From: a virus
Taxonomy: Duplodnaviria; Heunggongvirae; Uroviricota; Caudoviricetes
IMG/VR virus record: IMGVR_UViG_646311924_000007
Span: 32,001 to 96,000 of that record
DNA length: 64,000 nt
Direction: 5' to 3' (one strand)
Shown here: in pieces, positions 5,861 to 64,000 of the stretch
Layout of the letters: the number at the start of each line of letters is the position of its first letter
How positions within the stretch are numbered: position 1 is the first letter of the stretch
Program-made: the position numbers and the translations under genes
The notes under the pieces: generated by a model
Told to the model about the DNA's origin: nothing
The model's input: the letters and a program-made list of their open reading frames with translations, nothing else
Databases searched by the model: none

Positions 5861-6472
5861 TCAAAGAGAAAAACTAAAGCCCAGAAGGGAAGCTAAAGAA
5901 CTTGAGGATTGGTTAAACGTGCTGTGCAATGCGAAGGTCATTGGGAATGACTTAAATTCCGTAACCTGATCCCGCGCATAGGTGACATCGCCGGTAGTGA
6001 CTGGGAATACCGTCATCTCATTTTCCAGTTTGGTTAAACCGGAGGACAGCAACCGATAAATACGCACATTGAGCAAATATTTAGACGGTATATTCCCGGT
6101 ACCGTCCGGATTGATCACCCGACCTTTTGCCGTCTTAAACCAGTCCAAAACGAGGCCATCAACGGTATCCCTGACCATCATTGTTATCTGCCCAGGCGAA
6201 CGCTCCGTTGGCTGAAGGATATTCCCTCCGCCGATTTTAATCGTTTCATATTCGATGCTGTAATCGTGGTAGGTAATGTCTTTAGCAAAGAAGTCTGCCC
6301 CCTCCAGACCATCAACTTCGACAGAGAACTGCCATCCTTGCGCGAACAGCATTTTGTTCATGATGATTGACGTCAGCTTACCAACTTCCCGCTCACCAAC
6401 GCCGGAGCCAAATAATGTCGTCGTTAATGCCGAAGATACATAAGACTTTACTGAAGCAACATTAAGCCCCAT
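5861..6472 (-). CDS. hypothetical phage protein
   Basis: 203-aa ORF, tightly spaced in minus-strand operon. Confidence 0.5.
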   Translation of the reverse strand: MGLNVASVKSYVSSALTTTLFGSGVGEREVGKLTSIIMNKMLFAQGWQFSVEVDGLEGADFFAKDITYHDYSIEYETIKIGGGNILQPTERSPGQITMMVRDTVDGLVLDWFKTAKGRVINPDGTGNIPSKYLLNVRIYRLLSSGLTKLENEMTVFPVTTGDVTYARDQVTEFKSFPMTFALHSTFNQSSSSLASLLGFSFSL

Positions 6473-8296: not shown

Positions 8297-8402
8297 TATA
8301 ACCTCACCTGCCTTATAACCCATTTAGGGTACATATTTTCGCCTTTAAAAAAAAGAGGTTATTAGATCCAATTGTGTATTTATTAAGCATATAATGCTCT
8401 AA

Positions 8403-8419
8403 TAAATTTGTATTTTTAA
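8403..8419 (+). promoter_or_regulatory. C1 repressor operator-like site (AATGCTCTAATAAATTT)
   Basis: 16/17 match to recalled P1 C1 operator consensus ATTGCTCTAATAAATTT; in divergent intergenic region. Confidence 0.6.
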
Positions 8420-8723
8420 GTCGCGAATGCTATCTTTTCGCATCATATTGACCTTTTAATCGTTCAGGCTTATAGTTCCGCCGTCGTAGCAAATTCTGCG
8501 ACCGGGTTTAGCAGCCTGAATGATTGTGCGGACAGCCGCAGATATCCGATATTGCGGTATTTTTGTGTCCGTAAAACCGCGTTACGCCCAAATTATGGTG
8601 GGGCGTGATGGGGAGGCTTCGGCCTGCTGGTTTCACAATCGCCAGTCTGCTAACCCCGTCACGTCCTGCCACCTGTTTAGCAGCGGGTAGCAGGTTGTTA
8701 AACCTGATTGTGAGGCCGTAACT

Positions 8724-8945
8724 ATGGTTAATGCCAATCCTTGCGCACGCCAAGAATTCATCTGGCGTTTCTATTCCTGTAAAAAACACCACTATCACTT
8801 CGTTATCGCAGCAACAGAAGACGAAGCACGCTCTCAATTGCCTGATGGCCCCTGCATTTTTACTGCCCGTTTTTCAACTAACTCGCGCAATTCACTTAGT
8901 TACTGGAACCTCCCCTTCTCTGCCGACGTTCAGGGGGGTTTATGA
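8724..8945 (+). CDS. Icd-like small protein (host cell division inhibitor family)
   Basis: 73-aa ORF with EFIWRFYSC..HYHFVIAATEDEARSQLPDGPCIF; stop overlaps ATG of next gene (ATGA); paralog at 61646. Confidence 0.65.
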   Translation: MVNANPCARQEFIWRFYSCKKHHYHFVIAATEDEARSQLPDGPCIFTARFSTNSRNSLSYWNLPFSADVQGGL

Positions 8946-9979
8946 AAAAACCTCTCGTCACCCGTAATGACATAGCCGAAGCTATCGCCCTGCATACTGC
9001 CTGTATGCCGACACGGGAGATCCCCGGCGCAATTGCCAACTATTTCATGATAACCAGACGTTTTTATACCCGAACAGATAAGGCTGTGATCAACAAGCTA
9101 CTGATAGCCGAGATCAGGGATTATTTGATTGAACAAGGACGTCTACGTTACGCAACAGTGGCAGCAGAAATGAGAAAGGAGGCACATAGAATGACCGGTA
9201 ATAATTTGAATGTTGAAAAAACAGCACCTGTTACGTCAGCTACGCCAGCACCAGCCGTGAATATCATCCCCAACACCGGAGACACAATCGACAGCCTGAC
9301 ACTGTTAAAGATGGTCAATGAAGCGCGTAAGTTATGTGGGGAACCAGAGGTTCGGAACAACAAATTCATAGAAAAAATACTCGATGAGCTTGATGGTGAG
9401 CACTACACAAAAAGTGTAGTGGAAAAAATGAACAAAACATCAATGCTTGTCATAACCATGACCTACAAACAAGCCCTGCGAGTCGCCGCACGCGAATCAA
9501 AAGCCGTCCGCCGTTCGCTGATCGACAAACTGGAAGAATTGCAGCAGGCAAACTCCCCTACCCCATCGATCCCCCAAACATTACCAGAAGCTCTACGCCT
9601 GGCTGCCGAGTTGGCAGAACAGAAAATGCAGTTGGAACAACAGCTGGTGGCCGCAGCCCCTAAAGTCGATTTTGCCGACCGGGTATCAGCGGCTAATGGA
9701 ATCCTGATCGGGAACTTTGCAAAGGTCGTTGGACTTAAGCAAAACGCCCTTTTCTCATGGTTGCGCCAGAACGGCATTCTCATGGCTTTTGGTGCGCGCA
9801 AAAACGTACCGCGCCAACAGTACATCAACGCCGGATATTTCACGGTGAAAGAAGTGGTGCTGGATGATGAAGATGGCTACCAGATACGGCTGACGCCCCA
9901 ATTAACGGGTAAAGGCCAGCAGTGGTTAACTCGCAAGCTACTTGATGCTGGTTTGTTAAAACCAGTAGCAATAGGTTAA
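8942..9979 (+). CDS. antirepressor-like protein with KilA C-terminal (KilAC/ANT) domain
   Basis: C-terminus LPEALRLAAELAEQK..APKVDFADRV..GKGQQWL is near-identical in motif to the KilA C-terminus at 10144; translationally coupled to icd-like gene. Confidence 0.65.
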   Translation: MKKPLVTRNDIAEAIALHTACMPTREIPGAIANYFMITRRFYTRTDKAVINKLLIAEIRDYLIEQGRLRYATVAAEMRKEAHRMTGNNLNVEKTAPVTSATPAPAVNIIPNTGDTIDSLTLLKMVNEARKLCGEPEVRNNKFIEKILDELDGEHYTKSVVEKMNKTSMLVITMTYKQALRVAARESKAVRRSLIDKLEELQQANSPTPSIPQTLPEALRLAAELAEQKMQLEQQLVAAAPKVDFADRVSAANGILIGNFAKVVGLKQNALFSWLRQNGILMAFGARKNVPRQQYINAGYFTVKEVVLDDEDGYQIRLTPQLTGKGQQWLTRKLLDAGLLKPVAIG

Positions 9980-10057: not shown

Positions 10058-10074
10058 TTTGCTCTAATAAATTT
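10058..10074 (+). promoter_or_regulatory. C1 operator-like site upstream of kilA-repL (Op53 position)
   Basis: TTTGCTCTAATAAATTT, 16/17 to consensus, ~70 bp upstream of kilA start. Confidence 0.65.
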
Positions 10075-12115: not shown

Positions 12116-12296
12116 TACAATCGTTGCGGGTGCTTGAGGCTATCTGCTTCAGGCATTACCCGAAAAGCAGATAGAAGAAAGCCCCAGATAACATTACGCG
12201 TCCTGCAAGACGCTTAACATTAATCTGAGGCCACATCTATGCTTAGCATACGTAGATTAGCCTCTTACCGACCAAAAGGTCAAGGAGAAGCAGGCT

Positions 12297-12452
12297 ATGA
12301 AGCAGCAAAAAGCGATGTTAATCGCTCTGATCGTCATCTGTTTAACCGTCATTGTGACGGCACTGGTAACGAGGAAAGACCTCTGCGAGGTACGAATCCG
12401 AACCGGCCAGACGGAGGTCACTGTCTTCACAGCCTACGAATCTGAAAGGTAA
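12297..12452 (+). CDS. hok: Hok/Gef-family membrane toxin
   Basis: 51 aa MKQQKAMLIALIVICLTVIVTALVTRKDLCEVRIRTGQTEVTVFTAYESER, close to Hok/SrnB/PndA; overlapping mok-like frame 12239..12445; GC-rich fold-back at 12459-12480. Confidence 0.8.
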   Translation: MKQQKAMLIALIVICLTVIVTALVTRKDLCEVRIRTGQTEVTVFTAYESER

Positions 12453-19130: not shown

Positions 19131-20327
19131 TCAGTTAGATCTGATAAATTCAATACGGTCAAAAACTGCTTTAGCAAAATCTTCCGCGGCAATTCGCGCG
19201 TTCTTCAATGCATCAGCACTACCAACATACGTTGCCGGGTTAGCTGAAATAACAGTGTCAAAAGACTCGCCGCAACGTTCAAAACCGTCAAGGCGAGGGA
19301 GGACGACATCGAGCATATCCCCACCGAACACTTCTTTAGCCAGGCTATGGCAATACTTATGATCTGCCTTGTTACTCAACTTGGACATAAAACCAATGTT
19401 AGTCGCAAGCTGGCACTCGCAGCCTTCATCCGAAATGAGTTTCACCAACTCAGGAAGGCGGGCAACGTATTTAAGCGATGAGTGGAAATCGACAGTTGCT
19501 GGCGGCAGAGGTGTAAACAGTATATTGGCCGAGGCCAAAGCATTTTTCAGGAAGGCGTCAAGGTGAGGACCACTATCAACGAGGATAAAGTCATAATCGC
19601 TCTTCAGCTTATCAATCACATTTTCTTTCAGGACAGCATGGATGTTCTGACCCGGTAGATGCTCATTGCACAGCTCTCTCCAATCGGATGCAATAAAGGC
19701 ATCGTCAATCGACGCAGGCATAACGTCAACCCCAGGTACAACAGAAGGAACAATAAACTCCTCTAACAGCTCTTCACGGCTTACATTCTGCAACATAGCC
19801 TGTGCAGATGTTGCGTTTACGATACCAATAGAGTGTTTATGGCTTAAAAACATCGTTGCTGAAGATTGCGGATCAAGGTCAATAACCAGAATCCTTAAAT
19901 CTTCCATCAGAAGATGAGGGTGAGCACGCATTGCATGCGCCAGAGAAACCGTCGATACAGTTTTTGACACACCGCCTTTAAGATTGGAGATGAAAATCAC
20001 ATACGCTTCGCTGTAGCGATCCCGGTATTTTGGCACTCCGCGATGTTCATATATGTCAATGATGTTCTGAATTGACATCGCATATTTCATTGAAGAGCCA
20101 GCAGGGCGTTTATCGAAAACATAACCCTTTTCTTCCATTTCACTTACGGCATAGTCAACGTTCGCTCGAGTCAGTAGAGGCAATTTTGCCAGTGCCGCTT
20201 TCGCATAGACCTGGTAAAACTCGTTCGCGTGTAGCTCATCCTTTTGCAACTGTACTTGTTCAGTCAGAACATTGAGCATTCTGTTTGCTCTTTGAGCAAC
20301 CTTGTGAAGCTGGCTGGAATCACTCAT
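19131..20327 (-). CDS. parA: partition ATPase ParA (type Ia)
   Basis: 398 aa with N-terminal HTH extension and deviant Walker A (NLKGGVSKT). Confidence 0.9.
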   Translation of the reverse strand: MSDSSQLHKVAQRANRMLNVLTEQVQLQKDELHANEFYQVYAKAALAKLPLLTRANVDYAVSEMEEKGYVFDKRPAGSSMKYAMSIQNIIDIYEHRGVPKYRDRYSEAYVIFISNLKGGVSKTVSTVSLAHAMRAHPHLLMEDLRILVIDLDPQSSATMFLSHKHSIGIVNATSAQAMLQNVSREELLEEFIVPSVVPGVDVMPASIDDAFIASDWRELCNEHLPGQNIHAVLKENVIDKLKSDYDFILVDSGPHLDAFLKNALASANILFTPLPPATVDFHSSLKYVARLPELVKLISDEGCECQLATNIGFMSKLSNKADHKYCHSLAKEVFGGDMLDVVLPRLDGFERCGESFDTVISANPATYVGSADALKNARIAAEDFAKAVFDRIEFIRSN

Positions 20328-20465
20328 CGAAAGTCATCCTTTATGCTGTATTTTTGAATTTAATTAAAAATGCTGCATAAAATAATAATGTATGCGTAGA
20401 TGCTTGTACATGGCATTCTCTGCATGTTTTGTTCATTTTGCACGATTGAGAGTTACAAGAAAGGC

Positions 20466-20488
20466 ACAAAAAAGCCCCGTTCAGGGGC
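20466..20488 (-). terminator. rho-independent terminator (GCCCC/GGGGC hairpin)
   Basis: Hairpin 20474-20488 with A-run on plus strand (T-run on minus); lies between upstream minus-strand genes and parA promoter. Confidence 0.45.
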
Positions 20489-20495
20489 ATCAGTG

Positions 20496-20900
20496 TTATT
20501 TGCTAAGAGCAGCGAATAATCGTTCGAAATCGATAGTATCTATAGCACGCGTAAGCGCCGGAAGTTCAGCCTCAAAGTACCCGTGTCGATCGTAAAAGAA
20601 GGGACCGAAGAGCGAGGCATGTTGGATTCTACTTCGCCCCAGCCCGGACACACAGTTAAGCCCATTACCGGCTAAAAGGCTAAAAAACTTCTCTGGATTA
20701 TCGTGGTAAAGCTGAGAATCAATGGTGGCGGTTAACTCTTCCATAGGGAAGCACACCCGCCCTGTCTCCCAGGGATATTTAGTCCGAAGCATAAACATTG
20801 CTTTCAGCAATTCACATTGAGCGCGGATCGCGTCCGGTTCATAGCCAGATATGGAGACATAAGCCACGTCCCTCATTCCTGCGTCATCTTTGAAAGTCAC
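20496..20900 (-). CDS. hypothetical protein
   Basis: 134-aa ORF between incA and parA. Confidence 0.45.
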   Translation of the reverse strand: MTFKDDAGMRDVAYVSISGYEPDAIRAQCELLKAMFMLRTKYPWETGRVCFPMEELTATIDSQLYHDNPEKFFSLLAGNGLNCVSGLGRSRIQHASLFGPFFYDRHGYFEAELPALTRAIDTIDFERLFAALSK

Positions 20901-20969
20901 GATAGAAGTAACATCCAGTTCTTTTTCGAAAGAGCGAGCAGCATCTACTGGACGCTGAAGTAAATCATT

Positions 20970-21305
20970 CTACTTAATGCGCTCGAGAATCCCTCCCCAC
21001 ATATCATTTAGATATTCGATATGAGCCAAAACCTTATCAAGACACTCTCGTGTAAACCATTCAGTATGCCCGCCACCGGCGCTTTTCTCCCACGGCGCAT
21101 TCCAGGGGAAAAAGGTTGCGTGTAAAGCCCGCTCAAGATTAACCATTGCCAAACGCGTACCACGATAGACCCGTGAAAGCGCAAAATCGGGACTCACTTG
21201 TAGCCCTTTAAACCGTGCCAATGGACCACATGAAATGCCGATTTTAAAAGTATCTCCGTTCTCCGGCACCAGAACGTAGAGGTAGTGTTGTTTCTCTTCT
21301 TGCAT
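20970..21305 (-). CDS. T5orf172/GIY-YIG-like domain protein
   Basis: 111 aa; N-terminal YLYVLV....FKIGIS and C-terminal HTEWF resemble T5orf172-type GIY-YIG proteins. Confidence 0.45.
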   Translation of the reverse strand: MQEEKQHYLYVLVPENGDTFKIGISCGPLARFKGLQVSPDFALSRVYRGTRLAMVNLERALHATFFPWNAPWEKSAGGGHTEWFTRECLDKVLAHIEYLNDMWGGILERIK

Positions 21306-21334
21306 ATCAATACCACTGCTTGATGAGAACCGCG

Positions 21335-21595
21335 CAAATGTTGACTATGCGCGAAAGTTAATGTGAATAGTTGACTATGCGCGATGTGACTACAGTCAAA
21401 AGTTGACTGTAGTCGATTTAACTCCACCAAAGATCGACTATGTAAGATATTGTCGGGAGAAACGTTGACTATACGCGATGAAATGACCCTAAAAGCCATC
21501 TCAATAGCGACTTGCAGAATATTGACGCCAGCAAAAATCCACCAGCGTCAACGAATGTCGCCTATAGTCAACTTCTCGCTATCGCATATAGTCAA
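21335..21595. repeat. incA: incA-like iteron array (about 9 copies, both orientations)
   Basis: Repeated ~19-bp units with core GTTGACTATGCGCGA / TCGCATATAGTCAA downstream of repA. Confidence 0.65.
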
Positions 21596-21597
21596 TA

Positions 21598-22539
21598 TTA
21601 TGGATTGCGCTTATGGATCTGAAAGCCGATTTTCCTGCCGTTTTTTATCTCTGAAAATTTAAGATATTCAATAGCTTCCAAATCTTTCATGGCTTTTCTG
21701 ATAACGCTATTTTGCACGCTAACGGATGATTTGAGATTAAGCCTTGCTCTAAGGCGCTCAATGCTGACAGGTGCCGGGTTGGCGGGTAGAGCCTCAAAGA
21801 ATGTATACAGTACCTTGGCCGTCTCTTTGCGCCCGAGCTTATCCAGCATCTTCAGCTTCAGGATTCGCTTATAGTCAACATAGTAAAGTTCAGATAGCTG
21901 TTTCTGCGGCTGGATCTCGATAACATCAAGCTCGGTATTCAGGCTGCTATATGCCAACAAGTTGACGTTAATGTTATTGAGATGACCTTTTGCCGCCGGG
22001 AAGCGGAATTTGACAACTGTCTGCTGAATGCGTGTCAGAGAGTCATCAATACTTTTACGGAACGCCTTTGAAAGGCGCTTACGTGGATAGCCGCATCGAT
22101 CGGCAAACTCGGAGAATGGCAGGGTGATTATGCCGTCATCATCAGGTGCGTAGTCAAACAACGCGGAGGTTATGCCCACCCACACCTTAAAATCAGTATC
22201 CATATCCAGGCGTGGACCATGAATTTCAATTCCCTCATAGCCTTCCTGCTCAACAATTTTGAGGCTTGATAGTTCTTCGGTTGCGTTCGTTGTGTTTGTA
22301 GTAACTGACGATCCGCGACGTAGTGCCACATTGGTAGATTTTAAGGTTGGCACAAACACACCTAAGCGCAACAAAGCAATGGGTTGTATAGTGCTATTGT
22401 TATTGGGTTTCAGGCTGTGGATTTCTCCTGTATTTCCTGCAACTTCTTCAACGCTAAGGAAGCCTTTATTTTCTTCCAGCATCGTGGTTTCTCCATATGT
22501 GGCGCGGCCTGGCGTCATCTGGATTGCAGTTATCAACAA
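21598..22539 (-). CDS. repA: plasmid replication initiator RepA
   Basis: ORF flanked by iteron arrays on both sides as in P1 oriR-repA-incA; true start may be an internal Met. Confidence 0.75.
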   Translation of the reverse strand: MLITAIQMTPGRATYGETTMLEENKGFLSVEEVAGNTGEIHSLKPNNNSTIQPIALLRLGVFVPTLKSTNVALRRGSSVTTNTTNATEELSSLKIVEQEGYEGIEIHGPRLDMDTDFKVWVGITSALFDYAPDDDGIITLPFSEFADRCGYPRKRLSKAFRKSIDDSLTRIQQTVVKFRFPAAKGHLNNINVNLLAYSSLNTELDVIEIQPQKQLSELYYVDYKRILKLKMLDKLGRKETAKVLYTFFEALPANPAPVSIERLRARLNLKSSVSVQNSVIRKAMKDLEAIEYLKFSEIKNGRKIGFQIHKRNP

Positions 22540-29991: not shown

Positions 29992-30066
29992 GATGGTGTA
30001 GCTCAGCGGTAGAGCAGTTGGCTGTTAACCAACTGGTCGGTAGTTCGAATCCACCCACCATCGCCA
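29992..30066 (+). tRNA. tRNA-Asn (anticodon GUU)
   Basis: Hand-folded cloverleaf: acceptor GATGGTG/CACCATC, anticodon loop CTGTTAA, T-loop TTCGAAT, discriminator G, encoded CCA. Confidence 0.75.
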
Positions 30067-30071
30067 CTTTA

Positions 30072-30158
30072 GGGGAGTTAGTCCGTAGGGGTAGCGGGGT
30101 AGACTGTAAATCTACTGTCATTGCGACTCGGGTGGTTCGACTCCATCACTCCCCACCA
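30072..30158 (+). tRNA. class-II tRNA-like gene, anticodon GUA (Tyr-like)
   Basis: Acceptor GGGGAGT/ACTCCCC, anticodon arm GTAGA-CTGTAAA-TCTAC identical in loop to E. coli tRNA-Tyr as recalled, long variable arm, encoded CCA; D-arm region slightly irregular. Confidence 0.55.
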
Positions 30159-30162
30159 CATT

Positions 30163-30238
30163 GCCGATTTAGCTCAGTTGGTAGAGCAGTCGCTTTGTAA
30201 GCGAATGGTCAGCGGTTCGATCCCGTTAATCGGCACCA
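30163..30238 (+). tRNA. tRNA-Thr (anticodon UGU)
   Basis: Acceptor GCCGATT/AATCGGC, D-arm TAGCTCAGTTGGTAGAGC, anticodon loop TTTGTAA, T-loop TTCGATC, encoded CCA. Confidence 0.7.
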
Positions 30239-30240
30239 AC

Positions 30241-43279: not shown

Positions 43280-44166
43280 TGCCACTGCTGGATAAGCTGC
43301 GTGAGCAGTACGGGGTCGGACCGGTATGCAGCGAACTGCATATTGCCCCGTCAACGTATTACCATTGTCAGCAACAGCGACATCATCCGGATAAACGCAG
43401 TGCCCGTGCGCAGCACGACGACTGGCTGAAGAGAGAGATACAGCGCGTATACGATGAAAATCATCAGGTGTACGGTGTGCGTAAAGTCTGGCGTCAGTTG
43501 TTACGGGAAGGAATCAGGGTGGCCAGATGTACAGTGGCACGTCTCATGGCGGTTATGGGACTTGCCGGTGTTCTCCGGGGTAAAAAGGTCCGTACGACCA
43601 TCAGCCGGAAAGCCGTTGCCGCAGGCGACCGCGTAAACCGTCAGTTCGTGGCAGAACGACCTGACCAGCTGTGGGTGGCTGATTTTACTTACGTCAGCAC
43701 ATGGCAGGGCTTCGTCTATGTGGCGTTTATCATTGATGTGTTTGCCGGATACATCGTGGGGTGGCGGGTCTCATCGTCTATGGAAACGACATTCGTGCTG
43801 GATGCGCTGGAGCAGGCGTTGTGGGCCCGTCGTCCGTCTGGCACCATCCATCACAGCGATAAAGGCTCTCAGTATGTGTCACTGGCCTATACGGAGCGAC
43901 TAAAAGAAGCCGGATTACTGGCATCAACAGGGAGTACAGGCGACTCGTATGACAACGCGATGGCTGAGAGCATCAATGGTCTTTACAAAGCGGAGGTAAT
44001 ACACCGTAAGAGCTGGAAAAACCGTGCAGAAGTGGAACTGGCCACACTAACGTGGGTGGACTGGTATAACAATCGACGATTGCTGGGAAGGCTGGGCCAT
44101 ACTCCTCCGGCAGAAGCAGAAAAAGCTTATTATGCTTCCATCGGAAACGATGATCTGGCAGCCTGA
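43276..44166 (+). CDS. IS3-family transposase OrfB (DDE)
   Basis: 296 aa with DDE core; overlaps orfA in -1 frame at GGAAAAAATG. Confidence 0.85.
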
Positions 44167-44709
44167 GTTCACAGATAAAACACTCTCCAGGAAACCCGGG
44201 GCGGTTCAGACCGGATATAACCGATGATCTGTTCTATCTGGATTTGGACACGGTTATTGCCGGTGATATACGCCCAATCCTTGAGAATCCACCAACCTGC
44301 TTCACCATGCTTAGGGATTTTTACCATCCACAATATCGTGGTAGCGGTGCCCTGTGGATACCAAATAGTGTAAAAGCACATATCTGGAGTTCATTCTGGC
44401 AAGATCCGGAAGGTTGGATTGCTCGTTGTGTCACTACTGAGTGCTGGGGTGATCAGGGGTTCTTACGGAAGGTTATGGGCGATGATACACCAGCATTTCA
44501 GGATCTGTATCCAGGATGGTTTGTAAGTTACAAGGCCGATGTTGTGGAACCTGGTTCAAAATATGCGAGCGCGCGTTACTCCAGGGGGAATGGGGCATTA
44601 CCAAAGGACTGCCGAATAATCTTTTTCCACGGCAAACCGCGGCCTCGCGAAGTGTCAGAGGATTGGCTTCCCCTCATTAGCTCGTTTTTTGAGCGAGAAT
44701 CAGAATAAT

Positions 44710-58629: not shown

Positions 58630-59823
58630 GTGACCTGGGACGATCACAAGAAGAATTTTGCTCGCCTGGCGCGAGATGGTGGTTACACCATCGCACAGTA
58701 TGCCGCCGAGTTTAATCTTAACCCTAATACCGCACGTCGTTATCTCCGTGCCTTCAAAGAAGACTCCAGGACTGCGGACAGCCGCAAGCCAAATAAGCCA
58801 GTCAGGAAGCCACTAAAAAGCATGATCATTGATCACTCTAATGATCAACATGCAGGTGATCATATTGCGGCTGAAATAGCGGAAAAACAGAGAGTTAATG
58901 CCGTTATCAGTGCCGCAGTCGAGAATGCGAAGCGCCAAAATAAGCGCATAAATGATCGTTCAGATGATCATGACGTGATCACCCGCGCCCACCGGACCTT
59001 ACGTGATCGCCTGGAACGCGACACCCTGGATGATGATGGTGAACGCTTTGAATTCGAAGCTGGCGATTACCTGATAGATAACGTTGAAGCGCGGAAGGCC
59101 GCGCGCGCTATGTTGCGTCGGTCCGGGGCCGATGTTCTGGAAACCACTCTTCTTGAAAAGTCTCTTTCTCATCTCCTTATGCTGGAGAACGCCAGGGATA
59201 CGTGTATTCGCCTGGTGCAGGAAATGCGCGATCAGCAAAAAGACGATGATGAAGGTACTCCGCCTGAATACCGTATCGCGAGCATGCTAAACAGCTGTTC
59301 CGCGCAGATAAGCAGTCTGATCAACACCATTTACAGCATCCGGAATAACTATCGAAAAGAAAGCCGGGAGGCGGAAAAGCACGCTTTATCTATGGGGCAA
59401 GCTGGCATTGTTAAGCTGGCATACGAACGAAAGCGTGAAAATAACTGGTCAGTGCTGGAAGCAGCTGAATTCATCGAGGCGCATGGTGGGAAAGTTCCGC
59501 CCCTGATGCTGGAGCAAATCAAAGCCGATCTGCGTGCTCCTAAGACCAATACCGATGATGAGGAAAGGCAAACAGCCGTCGGTGGCCCTTCTCTTGAAGA
59601 TCTGGACAAAGTTGCGCGAGAACGGGCCGCCAGCCGCCGCGCTGATGCCGCATTGTGGATTGAGCATCGTAGAGAAGAAATTGCCGATATCGTCGATACA
59701 GGTGGTTATGGTGATGTCGATGCGGAAGGCATATCAAACGAAGCATGGCTTGAACAGGATCTGGACGAAAACGAGGAGGAAGACGAAGAAGTTACCCGCA
59801 AACTGTACGGGGATGATGATTAA
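58630..59823 (+). CDS. pacA: terminase small subunit PacA
   Basis: 397 aa, GTG start; contains pac hexamer clusters; followed by terminase large subunit. Confidence 0.8.
58823..58981. other. pac: pac packaging site (two clusters of TGATCA/G hexamers)
   Basis: Four TGATCA at 58823, 58830, 58842, 58857 and three TGATC(A/G) at 58953, 58965, 58976 within pacA, each containing a GATC. Confidence 0.65.
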
Positions 59824-61307
59824 TGGCCAGAAGTTGCGTAACGGACCCACGTTGGCGCGAGCTGGTGGCGCTATATCGTTATGACTGGATTGCGGCCGCT
59901 GATGTGTTGTTTGGGAAGACACCAACCTGGCAGCAGGATGAGATCATTGAGTCCACGCAGCAGGACGGCAGTTGGACAAGTGTGACCTCCGGCCATGGTA
60001 CTGGTAAGTCGGATATGACGAGTATCATTGCAATACTCTTCATCATGTTTTTCCCCGGCGCTCGCGTTATTCTGGTCGCTAACAAAAGACAGCAAGTCCT
60101 TGATGGTATTTTCAAATACATAAAGAGCAATTGGGCTACTGCTGTTAGCAGATTCCCGTGGTTGTCGAAGTATTTCATTCTTACAGAAACGTCTTTTTTT
60201 GAGGTGACTGGCAAGGGTGTTTGGACAATATTGATAAAGTCCTGTCGCTCCGGAAATGAGGAGGCGTTGGCTGGTGAACACGCCGATCATCTCTTGTATA
60301 TCATCGACGAAGCGTCGGGTGTGAGTGATAAAGCATTCAGTGTGATAACAGGTGCGCTGACCGGTAAGGATAACCGTATTCTGCTTCTTTCCCAGCCTAC
60401 GCGACCTTCAGGCTATTTCTACGATTCACACCACAGACTAGCTATTCGCCCGGGAAATCCTGATGGATTGTTTACTGCGATAATACTGAATAGTGAAGAA
60501 TCTCCGCTTGTAGATGCAAAATTTATACGAGCAAAACTTGCGGAGTATGGCGGTCGTGATAACCCCATGTACATGATCAAAGTACGTGGTGAATTTCCCA
60601 AATCTCAAGATGGCTTTCTTCTTGGTCGTGATGAGGTTGAGCGGGCGACGCGGCGAAAGGTCAAGATTGCCAAAGGATGGGGCTGGGTTGCATGTGTTGA
60701 CGTTGCTGGTGGCACAGGACGAGATAAGTCCGTTATTAATATCATGATGGTGTCCGGCCAGCGAAATAAACGCCGTGTAATCAACTATCGTATGCTGGAA
60801 TACACAGACGTTACAGAAACGCAGTTAGCCGCCAAGATTTTCGCAGAATGTAACCCAGAACGGTTCCCGAACATAACCATAGCTATTGATGGCGATGGCT
60901 TGGGGAAATCGACGGCTGATCTGATGTACGAACGCTATGGTATTACCGTCCAGCGTATCCGCTGGGGTAAAAAGATGCACAGCCGTGAAGATAAAAGCCT
61001 TTATTTCGATATGCGCGCTTTCGCGAATATTCAGGCGGCAGAAGCTGTAAAATCAGGGCGTATGCGGCTTGATAAGGGGGCTGCGACTATAGAGGAAGCA
61101 TCAAAGATACCGGTAGGGATAAATTCCGCAGGTCAATGGAAGGTGATGTCAAAGGAAGATATGAAGAAAAAACTCAACCTGCACTCACCGGACCATTGGG
61201 ATACATATTGTTTCGCTATGTTGGCGAACTATGTTCCCCAAGATGAAGTGCTTAGCGTCGAAGACGAAGCGCAGGTTGATGAAGCTCTGGCATGGCTTAA
61301 TGAATGA
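59823..61307 (+). CDS. pacB: terminase large subunit PacB
   Basis: 494 aa; Walker A-like region and C-terminal nuclease segment ([11 protein letters not shown]). Confidence 0.85.
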
Positions 61308-61310
61308 ATA

Positions 61311-61327
61311 TTTGCTCTAATAAATTG
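61311..61327 (+). promoter_or_regulatory. C1 operator-like site (TTTGCTCTAATAAATTG)
   Basis: 15/17 to consensus, 4 nt after pacB stop. Confidence 0.55.
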
Positions 61328-61645
61328 TGTTTTTTAACTACCGATGTTACATTGAGCCTGACCTCTTGCGCCTTGAGGCATTTTCGGTTTATGCTTATCA
61401 GGCACCTCATTAAAACGGGTGCCGGGATTGGCCTCCCGCTTAAGTCTAAGGCGATACAGACGCCGCTCGCGTCTTTTTTTGTATCGGCGTACACGCACAC
61501 CTCTACAATGGTGGGCTGTATGGGGCTACCTTCGGGTAGGCTGGTTACCTTGGACGCCAGTAAGGCCAACTCCGTACAGTCCACCGCCAGCAAGATTGGT
61601 CTCTTCTGCGGTGGTTACATACCAACGTCTAAGGAGGCTGCCAAT

Positions 61646-61867
61646 ATGGCTACTATCCCTACCCCAACTCATCCTGAATTTATCTGGCGCTTTTACTCCT
61701 GCCAAAAACGTCACTATCACTTCGTTATTGCACCAACAGAAGATGAGGCTCGCTCTCAGCTTCCTGACGCCCCATGTATTTTCTCTGCCCGTTTTTCCAC
61801 TGATTCACGCAATTCTCTCAGTTACTGGTGCCTCCCTGTTAACGCTTCTGCTCAGGAGGGACTATGA
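61646..61867 (+). CDS. Icd-like small protein, paralog 2
   Basis: 73 aa MATIPTPTHPEFIWRFYSCQKRHYHFVIAPTEDEARSQLPDAPCIF; stop 61865-61867 sits 3 bp before the IS end. Confidence 0.65.
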   Translation: MATIPTPTHPEFIWRFYSCQKRHYHFVIAPTEDEARSQLPDAPCIFSARFSTDSRNSLSYWCLPVNASAQEGL

Positions 61868-61912
61868 GAATGAACCGCCCCGGGTTTCCTGGAGAGTGTT
61901 TTATCTGTGAAC

Positions 61913-62803
61913 TCAGGCTGCCAGATCATCGTTTCCGATGGAAGCATAATAAGCTTTTTCTGCTTCTGCCGGAGGAGTATGGCCCAGCCTTCCCAGCAAT
62001 CGTCGATTGTTATACCAGTCCACCCACGTTAGTGTGGCCAGTTCCACTTCTGCACGGTTTTTCCAGCTCTTACGGTGTATTACCTCCGCTTTGTAAAGAC
62101 CATTGATGCTCTCAGCCATCGCGTTGTCATACGAGTCGCCTGTACTCCCTGTTGATGCCAGTAATCCGGCTTCTTTTAGTCGCTCCGTATAGGCCAGTGA
62201 CACATACTGAGAGCCTTTATCGCTGTGATGGATGGTGCCAGACGGACGACGGGCCCACAACGCCTGCTCCAGCGCATCCAGCACGAATGTCGTTTCCATA
62301 GACGATGAGACCCGCCACCCCACGATGTATCCGGCAAACACATCAATGATAAACGCCACATAGACGAAGCCCTGCCATGTGCTGACGTAAGTAAAATCAG
62401 CCACCCACAGCTGGTCAGGTCGTTCTGCCACGAACTGACGGTTTACGCGGTCGCCTGCGGCAACGGCTTTCCGGCTGATGGTCGTACGGACCTTTTTACC
62501 CCGGAGAACACCGGCAAGTCCCATAACCGCCATGAGACGTGCCACTGTACATCTGGCCACCCTGATTCCTTCCCGTAACAACTGACGCCAGACTTTACGC
62601 ACACCGTACACCTGATGATTTTCATCGTATACGCGCTGTATCTCTCTCTTCAGCCAGTCGTCGTGCTGCGCACGGGCACTGCGTTTATCCGGATGATGTC
62701 GCTGTTGCTGACAATGGTAATACGTTGACGGGGCAATATGCAGTTCGCTGCATACCGGTCCGACCCCGTACTGCTCACGCAGCTTATCCAGCAGTGGCAT
62801 CAT
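61913..62803 (-). CDS. IS3-family transposase OrfB (copy 2)
   Basis: Translation identical to copy 1 OrfB. Confidence 0.85.
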
Positions 62804-63126
62804 TTTTTCCAGAGGCGGTCGAACTCCGCCTTCGCAAAATAAGCGGAAGCCTGGCGAAGGATATCGTTACTGCGGCGCAGTTCACGATTTTCACGTTCCA
62901 GCTCTTTCAGACGCTGACGTTCAGCGCTGGTGAGCCCACCATCACCGCCCCCGGTATCCCGCTCATGCTGGCGAACCCAGACACGCAGAGTCTCCGGCGT
63001 ACAGCCAATCTTTGGGGCAATGGAACAAATTGCCGCCCACTGTGAGTCATATTCATCCTGACTTTCCAGAACCATACGAATCGCCCGCTGACGGACTTCG
63101 GGGGAAAAACGAGTATTTTTAGTCAT
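62800..63126 (-). CDS. IS3-family transposase OrfA (copy 2)
   Basis: Translation identical to copy 1 OrfA. Confidence 0.85.
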
Positions 63127-63206
63127 CCTGTTTACCTCTTTCTCAGGGAGTTTAGTCTCCAGGATTTCCGGGGCGGTTCAGAACGTCATTAGTCACCCGT
63201 GAAGAG

Positions 63207-64000
63207 ATGATCGAGGCAATTGAACAGCACACAATCTGTATCAGCACCAGGGATATACCTGGCGTTATTGCCAACTACTTCATGATCACCAAACAACTTT
63301 ACCGGAGAAAGGACAAGAACGCGGTTCACCGTATCCTGTTGTCTGATATCCGCGAATACCTGCTCGAACAGGGTCATCTGAATTACGCAACCGTCGCAGC
63401 CGAAGCACGCAAGGAGGCACACAGAATGAAAGCAAATAACGTTAAATTAGAAAAAATTCATGCACCTTCAGTTCAGGAATCGGAGCTGGTGGTTGTTCAG
63501 AATCAGTCTGATGAAATTCCCGTTCTGGAATGGCAGGGAGTGCGTGTAGTGACAACCGAGACTCTTGCGAGAGGGTATGGGACAGAAACAATCCGTATTC
63601 GCCAAAATCATCATGAGAACAAAGTACGCTTTGTTGAAGGGAAGCACTTTTTCAAAGTTGAAGGAGAATCATTGCGCGAGTTGAAGCACAGAGTAGCTTT
63701 AAACTACTCTGTAAAAATTGCTCGCAATGTTCGCTCACTCACCCTCTGGACAGAACGCGGCGCAGCCCGCCACGCTAAAATGCTCGAAACCGATCAGGCA
63801 TGGGCATTCTTTGAAAAACTGGAAGACAGCTACTTCCGACAAAAAGAACAGCAACCGATCGCAATCCCCCAGACGCTTCCTGAAGTCCTACGCCTGGCTG
63901 CCGAACTGGCTGAACAAAAGCAACTTCTGGAACAGAAAGCCCACCAGCTAAATCAGCAGCTGGTGGCCGCCGCTCCTAAAGTCGATTTTGCCGACCGGGT
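63207..64000 (+). CDS. antirepressor-like protein with KilAC domain, paralog of 8942..9979; runs off window end
   Basis: ATG 63207; N-terminal CISTRDIPGVIANYFMITKQLY parallels CMPTREIPGAIANYFMITRRFY; C-terminal LPEVLRLAAELAEQK...APKVDFADR matches KilAC. Confidence 0.6.
   Translation, partial: MIEAIEQHTICISTRDIPGVIANYFMITKQLYRRKDKNAVHRILLSDIREYLLEQGHLNYATVAAEARKEAHRMKANNVKLEKIHAPSVQESELVVVQNQSDEIPVLEWQGVRVVTTETLARGYGTETIRIRQNHHENKVRFVEGKHFFKVEGESLRELKHRVALNYSVKIARNVRSLTLWTERGAARHAKMLETDQAWAFFEKLEDSYFRQKEQQPIAIPQTLPEVLRLAAELAEQKQLLEQKAHQLNQQLVAAAPKVDFADR

Follow-up and report, generated by a model that had tools for sequence, protein, structure and literature searches.

An IS629 insertion splits ant1 of a second immI operon in a P1-like plasmid prophage

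In phages P1 and P7, the immI operon lies between sim and kilA-repL and starts with a C1 operator at its promoter, followed by two upstream target sites and a C4 RNA with exposed a' and b' segments. A further target, b2, lies over the Shine-Dalgarno (SD) sequence of a 73-codon icd, whose stop codon overlaps the ant1 start in an ATGA, and ant1 itself contains an ant2 start at codon 84 and ends in a KilAC C terminus. The P1 antirepressor Ant is an Ant1-Ant2 heterodimer (PMC8546580, PMC8198154), in the curated records of P1 and P7 icd and ant1 overlap by 4 nt and ant2 begins at codon 84, with the note "Ant1/Ant2/C1 complex," and ant1, ant2, icd, and c4 can all be dispensed with in lytic growth of P1 (PMC10695390). 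Even for P1 the assignment of the ant1 start to the ATGA is predicted, and the record describes the product as "27 aa longer than previously predicted"; our statements on P1 are taken from the curated GenBank records and later open-access papers. A related arrangement is found in the isrK-orf45-anrP locus of Gifsy-1, in which AUGA coupling of an upstream ORF to the antirepressor was shown experimentally and in which a short IsrK RNA acts in trans to switch on translation of the read-through mRNA, an effect known for Gifsy-1 only (PMC4825925). There is also a precedent for tolerated loss of ant1, since in P7-like plasmids such as pMCR_SCKP-LL83 the canonical ant1 of an otherwise complete prophage is interrupted by ISApl1-mcr-1, and the prophage is not inducible (PMC5786510). 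Finally, RCS47, pTZ20_1P, JL22, and vB_EcoM-673R5 carry an extra ant module, for which Venturini et al. 2019 mention [quoted passage not shown] (PMC6906374). In the portions of this literature accessible to us the module is presented as ORFs only, with no description of its C4 RNA, isrK RNA, or operator.

The DNA analyzed here, a stretch of 64,000 nucleotides that we refer to as the window, belongs to a P1-like plasmid prophage. Besides a canonical P7-type immI with an intact ant (module 1, 8393-9979), it carries a second complete P1-type immI module between pacB and c1 (module 3), the features of which are collected in Table 1. Module 3 has a counterpart of each element of the P1/P7 operon, in unchanged order, with an operator at the promoter, two upstream target copies, a C4 RNA upstream of its target, a'/b' pairing and, in the IS-free allele, the ATGA, the internal ant2 start, and a KilAC C terminus. 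Its position, away from sim and kilA-repL, is different, as befits a paralogous second immI. Its putative C1 operator, one of 12 C1-operator-like sites in the window (0.34 expected), lines up with Oc4, an annotated operator of P1. The leader RNA scores as isrK, above the gathering score and with an intrinsic terminator, and not as c4-a1b1 as in P1 and P7. Gifsy-1 shares this isrK-type leader with terminator and the overlap between the stop of a small ORF and the start of the antirepressor, but its 45-codon upstream ORF is not Icd, its short IsrK RNA acts in trans, and it has no C1 operator.

The antisense specificity of module 3 appears to be its own, since neither a' nor b' of its C4 RNA is related in sequence to the P1 or P7 counterpart. 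According to an MFE fold and a target search, b' (CCUUGGAC) lies in the loop of hairpin 2 (61548-55) and a' (AGGCCAA) in a single-stranded bulge (61563-69), and both would pair in antiparallel fashion with a2 and b2, over 7 and 9 bp with one G-U each, b2 overlapping the icd SD sequence AAGGAGG (61631-37). The helices that C4 a' and b' would form with their own targets are 7-9 bp long and occupy homologous positions, and a complementarity search found no equivalent pairing of the module 3 C4 with the module 1 targets. The predicted Icd is 81% identical to that of module 1 over 63 aa, an identical protein is named "Icd-like" in relatives, and Pfam assigns neither Icd to a family. The Ant protein shows 59% identity to P1 Ant1; its central domain is ORF6N, unlike that of P1 Ant. 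The extra modules of RCS47, pTZ20_1P, JL22, and vB_EcoM-673R5 are 86-99% identical in DNA to module 3 and uninterrupted, unlike the copy in the window, in which ant1 is split by IS629. Of greater interest than the insertion is this context, a complete immI operon under C1/C4 control, the second of its kind here (in relatives the third), with an antisense specificity of its own.

Table 1. Coordinates of module 3 and of the inserted element in the window
Feature	Coordinates	Strand	Details	Basis
C1-operator-like site	61311..61327	+	TTTGCTCTAATAAATTG; 4 nt past pacB stop	2 mismatches to ATTGCTCTAATAAATTT; 15/17 consensus positions
Putative promoter, weak consensus	61325..61353	+	TTGTGT-17-(TG)TACATT; position of P1 promoter P2c4	relaxed hexamer scan, P1 alignment
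isrK-like leader RNA	61402..61479	+	a1 61428-34; b1 61444-51; terminator hairpin 61458-74 and T run	Rfam RF01394, 60.8 bits (gathering score 50); terminator scan (terminator), complementarity search (a1/b1)
C4 antisense RNA	61504..61591	+		Rfam RF01695, 75.9 bits (gathering score 45)
C4 targets	61596..61634	+	a2 61596-602, UUGGUCU; b2 61626-34, CGUCUAAGG	
icd-like gene	61646..61867	+	73 codons, intact	
Severed ant1 head	61854..61870	+	SD AGGAGG 61854-59, ATG 61864-66, codon 2, first base of codon 3	IS-free allele, P1/P7 annotation
Nonsense ORF	61864..62106	+	80 codons, from coupled ant1 start into IS antisense strand	ORF listing
Left GAA duplication	61868..61870		nt 5-7 of ant1	
IS629/IS1203	61871..63180	minus	1310 bp, antisense to operon	
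Parts of IS629/IS1203	61871..63180	minus	IRR 61871-95; orfB 61913-62803; ALIL pseudoknot 62729-62845; orfA 62800-63126; IRL 63156-80	
Right GAA duplication	63181..63183			
ant1 body	63184..64000	+	from second base of codon 3; leaves window at about codon 275 of 372	100% identical to IS-free relatives
ant2-like internal start	63412..63429	+	AGGAGG 63412-17, 9-nt spacer, ATG 63427 (ant1 codon 84), intact	

The element that interrupts module 3 is a copy of IS629/IS1203, of the IS3 family (IS629 equals IS1203v; PMC9330008), from which it shows no structural difference. It matches EHEC copies, annotated by PGAP as "IS3-like element IS1203 family," at 1310 of 1310 bp (100%). All four hallmarks of the element were found, namely inverted repeats and size, the orfA/orfB frameshift arrangement, a 3-bp duplication, and near-identity. 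The terminal inverted repeats are 25 nt long and imperfect (88% complementary), orfA and orfB overlap on the minus strand and match HTH_Tnp_1 (2.4e-12) and rve, the DDE domain (9.3e-28), respectively, and the ALIL pseudoknot, a programmed -1 frameshift signal, scores 121.5 bits. This copy is active-looking, and what is new about it, in the collections searched, is the insertion site only.

The site itself is defined by comparison with IS-free relatives, the window being compared piecewise with NZ_CP027575. The two GAA triplets that flank the element, which the original prediction had correctly recognized, are a genuine 3-bp target duplication rather than a chance repeat, as only one GAA is present in the IS-free relative. 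In ten replicons both flanks are matched at 100% but exactly 1313 bp, equal to the IS and one GAA, is missing, and these replicons read ...ggactATGAgaacgtcattagtcacccgtgaagagATGatc... across the insertion site. It had been proposed that the IS separates icd from its antirepressor partner and that its removal would restore a short spacer between them. However, none of the IS-free relatives has an intergenic spacer; their icd and ant1 share a 4-nt ATGA (61864-61867 in module 3), as in P1, P7, and module 1, where the overlap was found as described (8942-8945), and PGAP annotates it in all three modules of an IS-free relative plasmid. In the IS-free allele, given by the sequence of one relative, this ATGA opens an unbroken ORF of 372 codons that continues in frame through 63207, and the insertion is therefore intragenic. 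The IS is real, but instead of pushing two genes apart it splits ant1 itself at codon 3, after nucleotide 7, and leaves the SD sequence, the coupled start, and two codons attached to icd, 1.3 kb upstream of the remaining 370 codons. The ATG at 63207, previously taken as the antirepressor start, is indeed present 23 nt past the second GAA; it is Met11 of the ORF that begins at 61864. In annotation, this antirepressor should be entered as a pseudogene split at codon 3 rather than as an intact displaced gene, and a start call at 63207 would be wrong. The last ~100 codons of ant, together with the c1 gene, lie beyond the end of the window.

In all likelihood, then, IS629/IS1203 has landed in ant1 of a second immI operon and left Ant null or severely reduced, with C4 and Icd kept. 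The element transposed past the seventh nucleotide of ant1, duplicating GAA, in antisense orientation to the operon, so that the coupled start now opens the nonsense ORF. Transcripts of the operon would have to cross ~1.07 kb of antisense IS RNA that is untranslated and C-rich (30.6% C vs. 24.2% G on the plus strand, 62107-63180), against the transposase promoter, and this composition suggests that Rho-dependent polarity may also starve the intact ant2 start at Met84. No in-frame start (ATG, GTG, or TTG) occurs between the stop at 63153 and the ATG at 63207, which rules out a fusion start within the IS end, and no SD sequence precedes 63207, AGGAGG being found before 61864 and before 63427. 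Met11 thus lacks a ribosome site and is preceded by no usable start, so that full-length Ant1 cannot be made. Low-level Ant2 could still arise from the ant2 start, perhaps via a weak promoter-like site (AGGACA-16-TATCCT, 63310-37). As antirepressor activity in P1 is attributed to the Ant1/Ant2 complex, the module 3 antirepressor would be null or severely reduced, and IS629 almost certainly knocks out this spare antirepressor gene. The loss of antirepressor expression anticipated by the original prediction thus appears better founded than proposed, with the gene physically split, no start or SD sequence before 63207, and no sigma-70-like promoter facing ant in the right part of the IS.

The biological effect is probably small, with one of several redundant, normally repressed antirepressors lost and the C4 RNA and Icd remaining. 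C4, icd, and the immI of module 1 are intact in the window, and C4 immunity and Icd would be preserved; since ant1, ant2, icd, and c4 are nonessential and module 1 retains its ant, any phenotype, including the stabilized lysogeny or plasmid carriage put forward in the original prediction, is likely to be mild. We regard the insertion as an ordinary strain-specific mutation, apparently recent and either neutral or of slight advantage, acquired in a host of EHEC type rich in IS629. Precise excision could in principle reverse it, since the GAA duplication is intact.

The same insertion was not found at 80% coverage or more in 5,426 complete Escherichia coli genomes or in PLSDB, and the 37-nt left junction had no exact match in IMG/VR, GTDB species representatives, or JGI metagenomes. 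This junction is new to the collections searched; that mobile elements insert into ant1 of P1/P7-like plasmids has been documented before. ISSen4 is found at ant1 codon 36 in CP060066, ISVsa5 near codon 30 in CP027199, and TnAs1 at the icd 3' end in CP149813; CP079766 has a deletion in the same region or gene. The insertion in pMCR_SCKP-LL83, unlike IS629 here, affects the canonical ant1, brings a resistance gene, and lacks target duplications. These independent hits, together with the P7-like mcr-1 plasmids, could mean that the knockout is selected, accessory immI modules repeatedly losing the Ant1-specific 5' part while keeping C4 and icd as immunity-only modules from which the induction route is gone. 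We consider this unlikely. The survey rests on one 5' probe (321 bp, covering the icd 3' end and the ant1 5' end), which entails ascertainment bias, and its counts ignore kinship. The probe matched only partially in 16 of 353 E. coli replicons and 12 of 340 PLSDB plasmids, the other 337 and 328 being uninterrupted there. A control probe from the middle of ant was itself partial in 266 of 469 records, the gene being mosaic, and this spoils the control so that no hot-spot enrichment can be claimed. Suppressors of a defective c4 are known from classical P1 c4/ant genetics; IS629 is ruled out as such a suppressor here, since 100% identity to IS-free relatives extends through the leader, C4, and icd. 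A broader version of the idea is equally doubtful, in which P1-like prophages of EHEC-type hosts would have as many as three immI operons under C1 control, their C4s mutually orthogonal, and mobile elements (IS629, ISSen4, ISVsa5, TnAs1) would remove accessory Ant1 5' ends in a selected conversion to C4-only immunity cassettes. Were it true, such a cassette would provide superinfection exclusion and lock the prophage in the plasmid state.

Very improbable is the model of the original prediction, in which the IS occupies an intergenic spacer, ant is intact from 63207, and the effect is transcriptional polarity only. The ATG at 63207 does exist in frame, and Met is found at position 11 in all module-3-type Ant proteins, but this position is Ile in P1 and in P7-type/module 1 proteins. 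In an alignment of six Ant1 proteins, M1, L5, V6, T7, R8, and M84 are invariant, and the invariance of residues 5-8 speaks against the model. The model is also contradicted by the empty site, where there is no spacer and the ATGA, preceded by AGGAGG, reads in frame through 63207; by the lack of an SD sequence before that ATG; and by three independent annotations (PGAP, RCS47, and JL22), all of which start ant at the ATGA.

Hardly credible, too, is the idea that a promoter at the IS end frees ant from C1 and C4, giving constitutive Ant2 or a Met11-Ant and a prophage that is easier to induce. In certain contexts, outward or hybrid promoters are known to arise from IS elements (PMC9330008), the ant2 SD sequence and ATG are intact, and the weak site at 63310-37 looks promoter-like. 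That site is however also present in IS-free relatives and hence not IS-made. An outward promoter from the IS end toward ant had been raised earlier as something to look for, and neither promoter scan of the right part of the IS offers a candidate, with no plus-strand sigma-70-like site between 62700 and 63206 that matches 8 or more of 12 positions and none in the stricter scan. In IS3-family elements, the element's own promoter, at the IRL end, points inward. As ant abuts the IRL end here, that promoter would point away from ant. A constitutive antirepressor would moreover be expected to destabilize a plasmid prophage.

An assembly artefact, with a repeat-collapsed IS629 misplaced in the plasmid, can be set aside as extremely improbable, for although the window holds two 100% identical copies and the junction occurs in no other record searched, we see a perfect simple insertion with flanks identical to relatives and a 3-bp duplication of single-copy sequence, which misassembly would not create. 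The second IS629 copy is inverted with respect to the first and has its own GAC duplication; an inversion between the two is ruled out, as each copy has a matched duplication (GAC/GAC and GAA/GAA).

The IS629 copy in module 3, the accessory immI operon of this P1-like plasmid prophage, is a knock-out of ant1 at codon 3. The original prediction correctly reported the position of this element, its GAA duplication and an ATG at 63207, but it misread the gene boundary, placing the IS between an intact icd-like gene and an antirepressor gene starting at that ATG. Both flanks of the insertion are 100% identical in ten E. coli plasmids, from which exactly 1313 bp are absent, and the empty site in NZ_CP027575 reads ...caggagggactATGAgaacgtcattagtcacccgtgaagagATGatcgag.... 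In module 3, the icd stop and ant1 start overlap as ATGA at window 61864-67, with an AGGAGG upstream, as in module 1, the canonical immI operon, whose ATGA (8942-45) had been rightly recognized. In the IS-free allele, this ATG opens a 372-codon ORF of which the ATG at 63207 is in-frame codon 11. The icd/ant overlap is also 4 nt in all three icd-ant modules of NZ_CP027575 (PGAP annotation) and in the curated P1 and P7 records, where ant2 starts at codon 84. When six Ant1 proteins were aligned (P1, modules 1, 2 and 3, RCS47, and JL22), M1, L5, V6, T7, R8, and M84 were invariant in all of them, and P1 and module 1 have Ile at position 11. The empty site and conserved Ant1 N terminus together place the IS inside ant1, after nucleotide 7, with the GAA duplication corresponding to ant1 nucleotides 5-7. 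The short spacer expected to be regained on IS removal is replaced by the ATGA overlap in IS-free NZ_CP027575, so module 3, judged from sequence, has no icd/ant spacer to restore.

Apart from this insertion, module 3 has all the parts of a P1-type immI operon. It is located between pacB (59823-61307) and c1, which lies beyond the window end and is seen in relatives. In the predicted fold of its C4 RNA, b' CCUUGGAC is exposed in the hairpin-2 loop and a' AGGCCAA in a single-stranded bulge. Twelve C1-operator-like 17-mers with at most three mismatches, the module 3 site among them, are present in the window (e.g., at 10058, 25011, 29310, and 46852) vs. 0.34 expected by chance, which is consistent with a P1-type regulon across the whole window. 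In relatives, the place of the isrK and C4 RNA matches is taken exactly by a PGAP-annotated pseudogene, "ash family protein", incomplete (window 61304-61620; 6005-6322 in locus L001), probably an RNA region miscalled as a protein gene.

Features of module 3 and its IS629 copy (window coordinates)
Feature	Position	Remarks
C1-operator-like site	61311-27	aligns with P1 Oc4
Promoter-like site	61325-53	weak; at position of P1 promoter P2c4
isrK-family leader	61402-79	60.8 bits; terminator hairpin at end
a1	61428-34	inside isrK-family leader
b1	61444-51	inside isrK-family leader
C4 RNA	61504-91	75.9 bits
a2	61596-602	
b2	61626-34	overlaps icd Shine-Dalgarno sequence
icd	61646-61867	73 codons
GAA on both IS flanks	61868-70 and 63181-83	
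IS629 copy	61871-63180	1310 bp
Terminal inverted repeats	61871-95 and 63156-80	25 nt, imperfect
orfB	62803->61913	minus strand; overlaps orfA; matches rve
ALIL frameshift pseudoknot	62845-62729	121.5 bits
orfA	63126->62800	minus strand; matches HTH_Tnp_1
ant2-type internal start	63427	Met84 of ant1; own AGGAGG
ORF6N domain of Ant	63550-63810	Ant residues 116-202

The part of ant1 that stays joined to icd consists of its ribosome site, its start codon, and two codons, and this start now opens an 80-codon nonsense ORF (61864-62106) into the IS antisense strand. The ant1 body has an in-frame stop at 63153, with neither a start codon in its frame ahead of 63207 nor a Shine-Dalgarno sequence there. 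This allele thus cannot yield full-length Ant1, in line with the loss of antirepressor expression originally proposed. Operon transcripts would also have to cross 1.07 kb of untranslated IS RNA of C-rich, G-poor composition (30.6% C, 24.2% G), against opposing transposase transcription, and Rho-dependent polarity should then lower expression from the intact ant2 start too. An outward IS promoter toward ant had been considered, but promoter scans of the right part of the IS found no such promoter-like sequence. Since P1 antirepressor activity is credited to an Ant1-Ant2 complex (curated P1 record; PMC8546580; PMC8198154), module 3 is probably antirepressor null.

As for the upstream part of the operon, the leader, C4, and icd are unaltered and 100% identical to those of IS-free relatives. 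C4-based immunity of module 3 should therefore persist, and the idea that IS629 compensates for a c4 defect is ruled out. A mild phenotype is likely, because module 1 is intact and P1 lytic growth does not need ant, icd, or c4 (PMC10695390). The element is identical (100%, full length) to copies from EHEC genomes, O157:H7 among them, that PGAP annotates as "IS3-like element IS1203 family", IS1203v and IS629 being one element (PMC9330008). Since IEE helps excise IS629 in EHEC (PMC9330008) and the duplication is intact, the ant1 allele could in principle revert.

The exact junction was not found in 5,426 complete E. coli genomes, PLSDB, IMG/VR, GTDB representatives, or JGI metagenomes. The allele is new, but events of this type are well known, and its general interest is low. 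The same pacB-c1 module is disrupted independently by ISSen4 at ant1 codon 36 (NZ_CP060066), ISVsa5 near ant1 codon 30 (NZ_CP027199), a deletion from lpa into ant (NZ_CP079766), and TnAs1 at the icd 3' end (NZ_CP149813), and the canonical ant1 of P7-like plasmids carries ISApl1-mcr-1 (PMC5786510). The ant1 5' region, which is what we surveyed, a mid-gene control probe being confounded by ant mosaicism, is uninterrupted in 337 of 353 E. coli replicons and 328 of 340 PLSDB plasmids.

More noteworthy than the insertion itself is its context, several immI operons with C4 RNAs that are predicted to be orthogonal. Module 1 (8393-9979) is P7-type, with intact icd and 345-aa ant1; it matches P7 perfectly in a1/b1, C4 a'/b', and a2/b2, and it is exactly at these contact positions that it departs from P1. 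Module 3 is unrelated to module 1 and P7 at these positions, and the two C4 RNAs should consequently not cross-regulate. NZ_CP027575, the closest IS-free relative, has three immI operons with icd-ant. The third (68130-69796; 20130-21796 in locus L003), outside the window, combines a perfect C1 operator with a P1-type a' and a new b' (CAUUCGU) and also carries icd, ATGA, and ant; in the 5' region of ant1, it is almost identical to module 3. Its own a'/b' points to three C4 specificities on one plasmid.

For pTZ20_1P and RCS47, an ant gene at the pacB-c1 position is already on record (PMC6906374). Phages RCS47, JL22, and vB_EcoM-673R5 carry it, but P1 and P7 do not. While the Ant proteins of P1 and module 1 lack ORF6N, that of module 3 has this domain between the conserved N terminus and KilAC. 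From leader through ORF6N, module 3 shares ~76% identity with Stx2 phages (e.g., P13374 and TL-2011c), and different plasmids show mosaicism in the middle of ant. These features suggest that the repressor targeted by module 3 Ant may be other than C1.

A second IS629, 100% identical to the module 3 copy and in opposite orientation (42899-44208, plus strand), interrupts codon 69 of a hypothetical gene of 233 aa; this gene is intact in NZ_CP027575, and the two halves are 98-99% identical to that intact copy. An inversion between the copies is disfavored because each has its own matched duplication, GAC (42896-98 and 44209-11) and GAA, respectively. Elsewhere, the window contains a sok antitoxin RNA match (12128-12302, 114.8 bits) and four tRNA genes (29992-32256).
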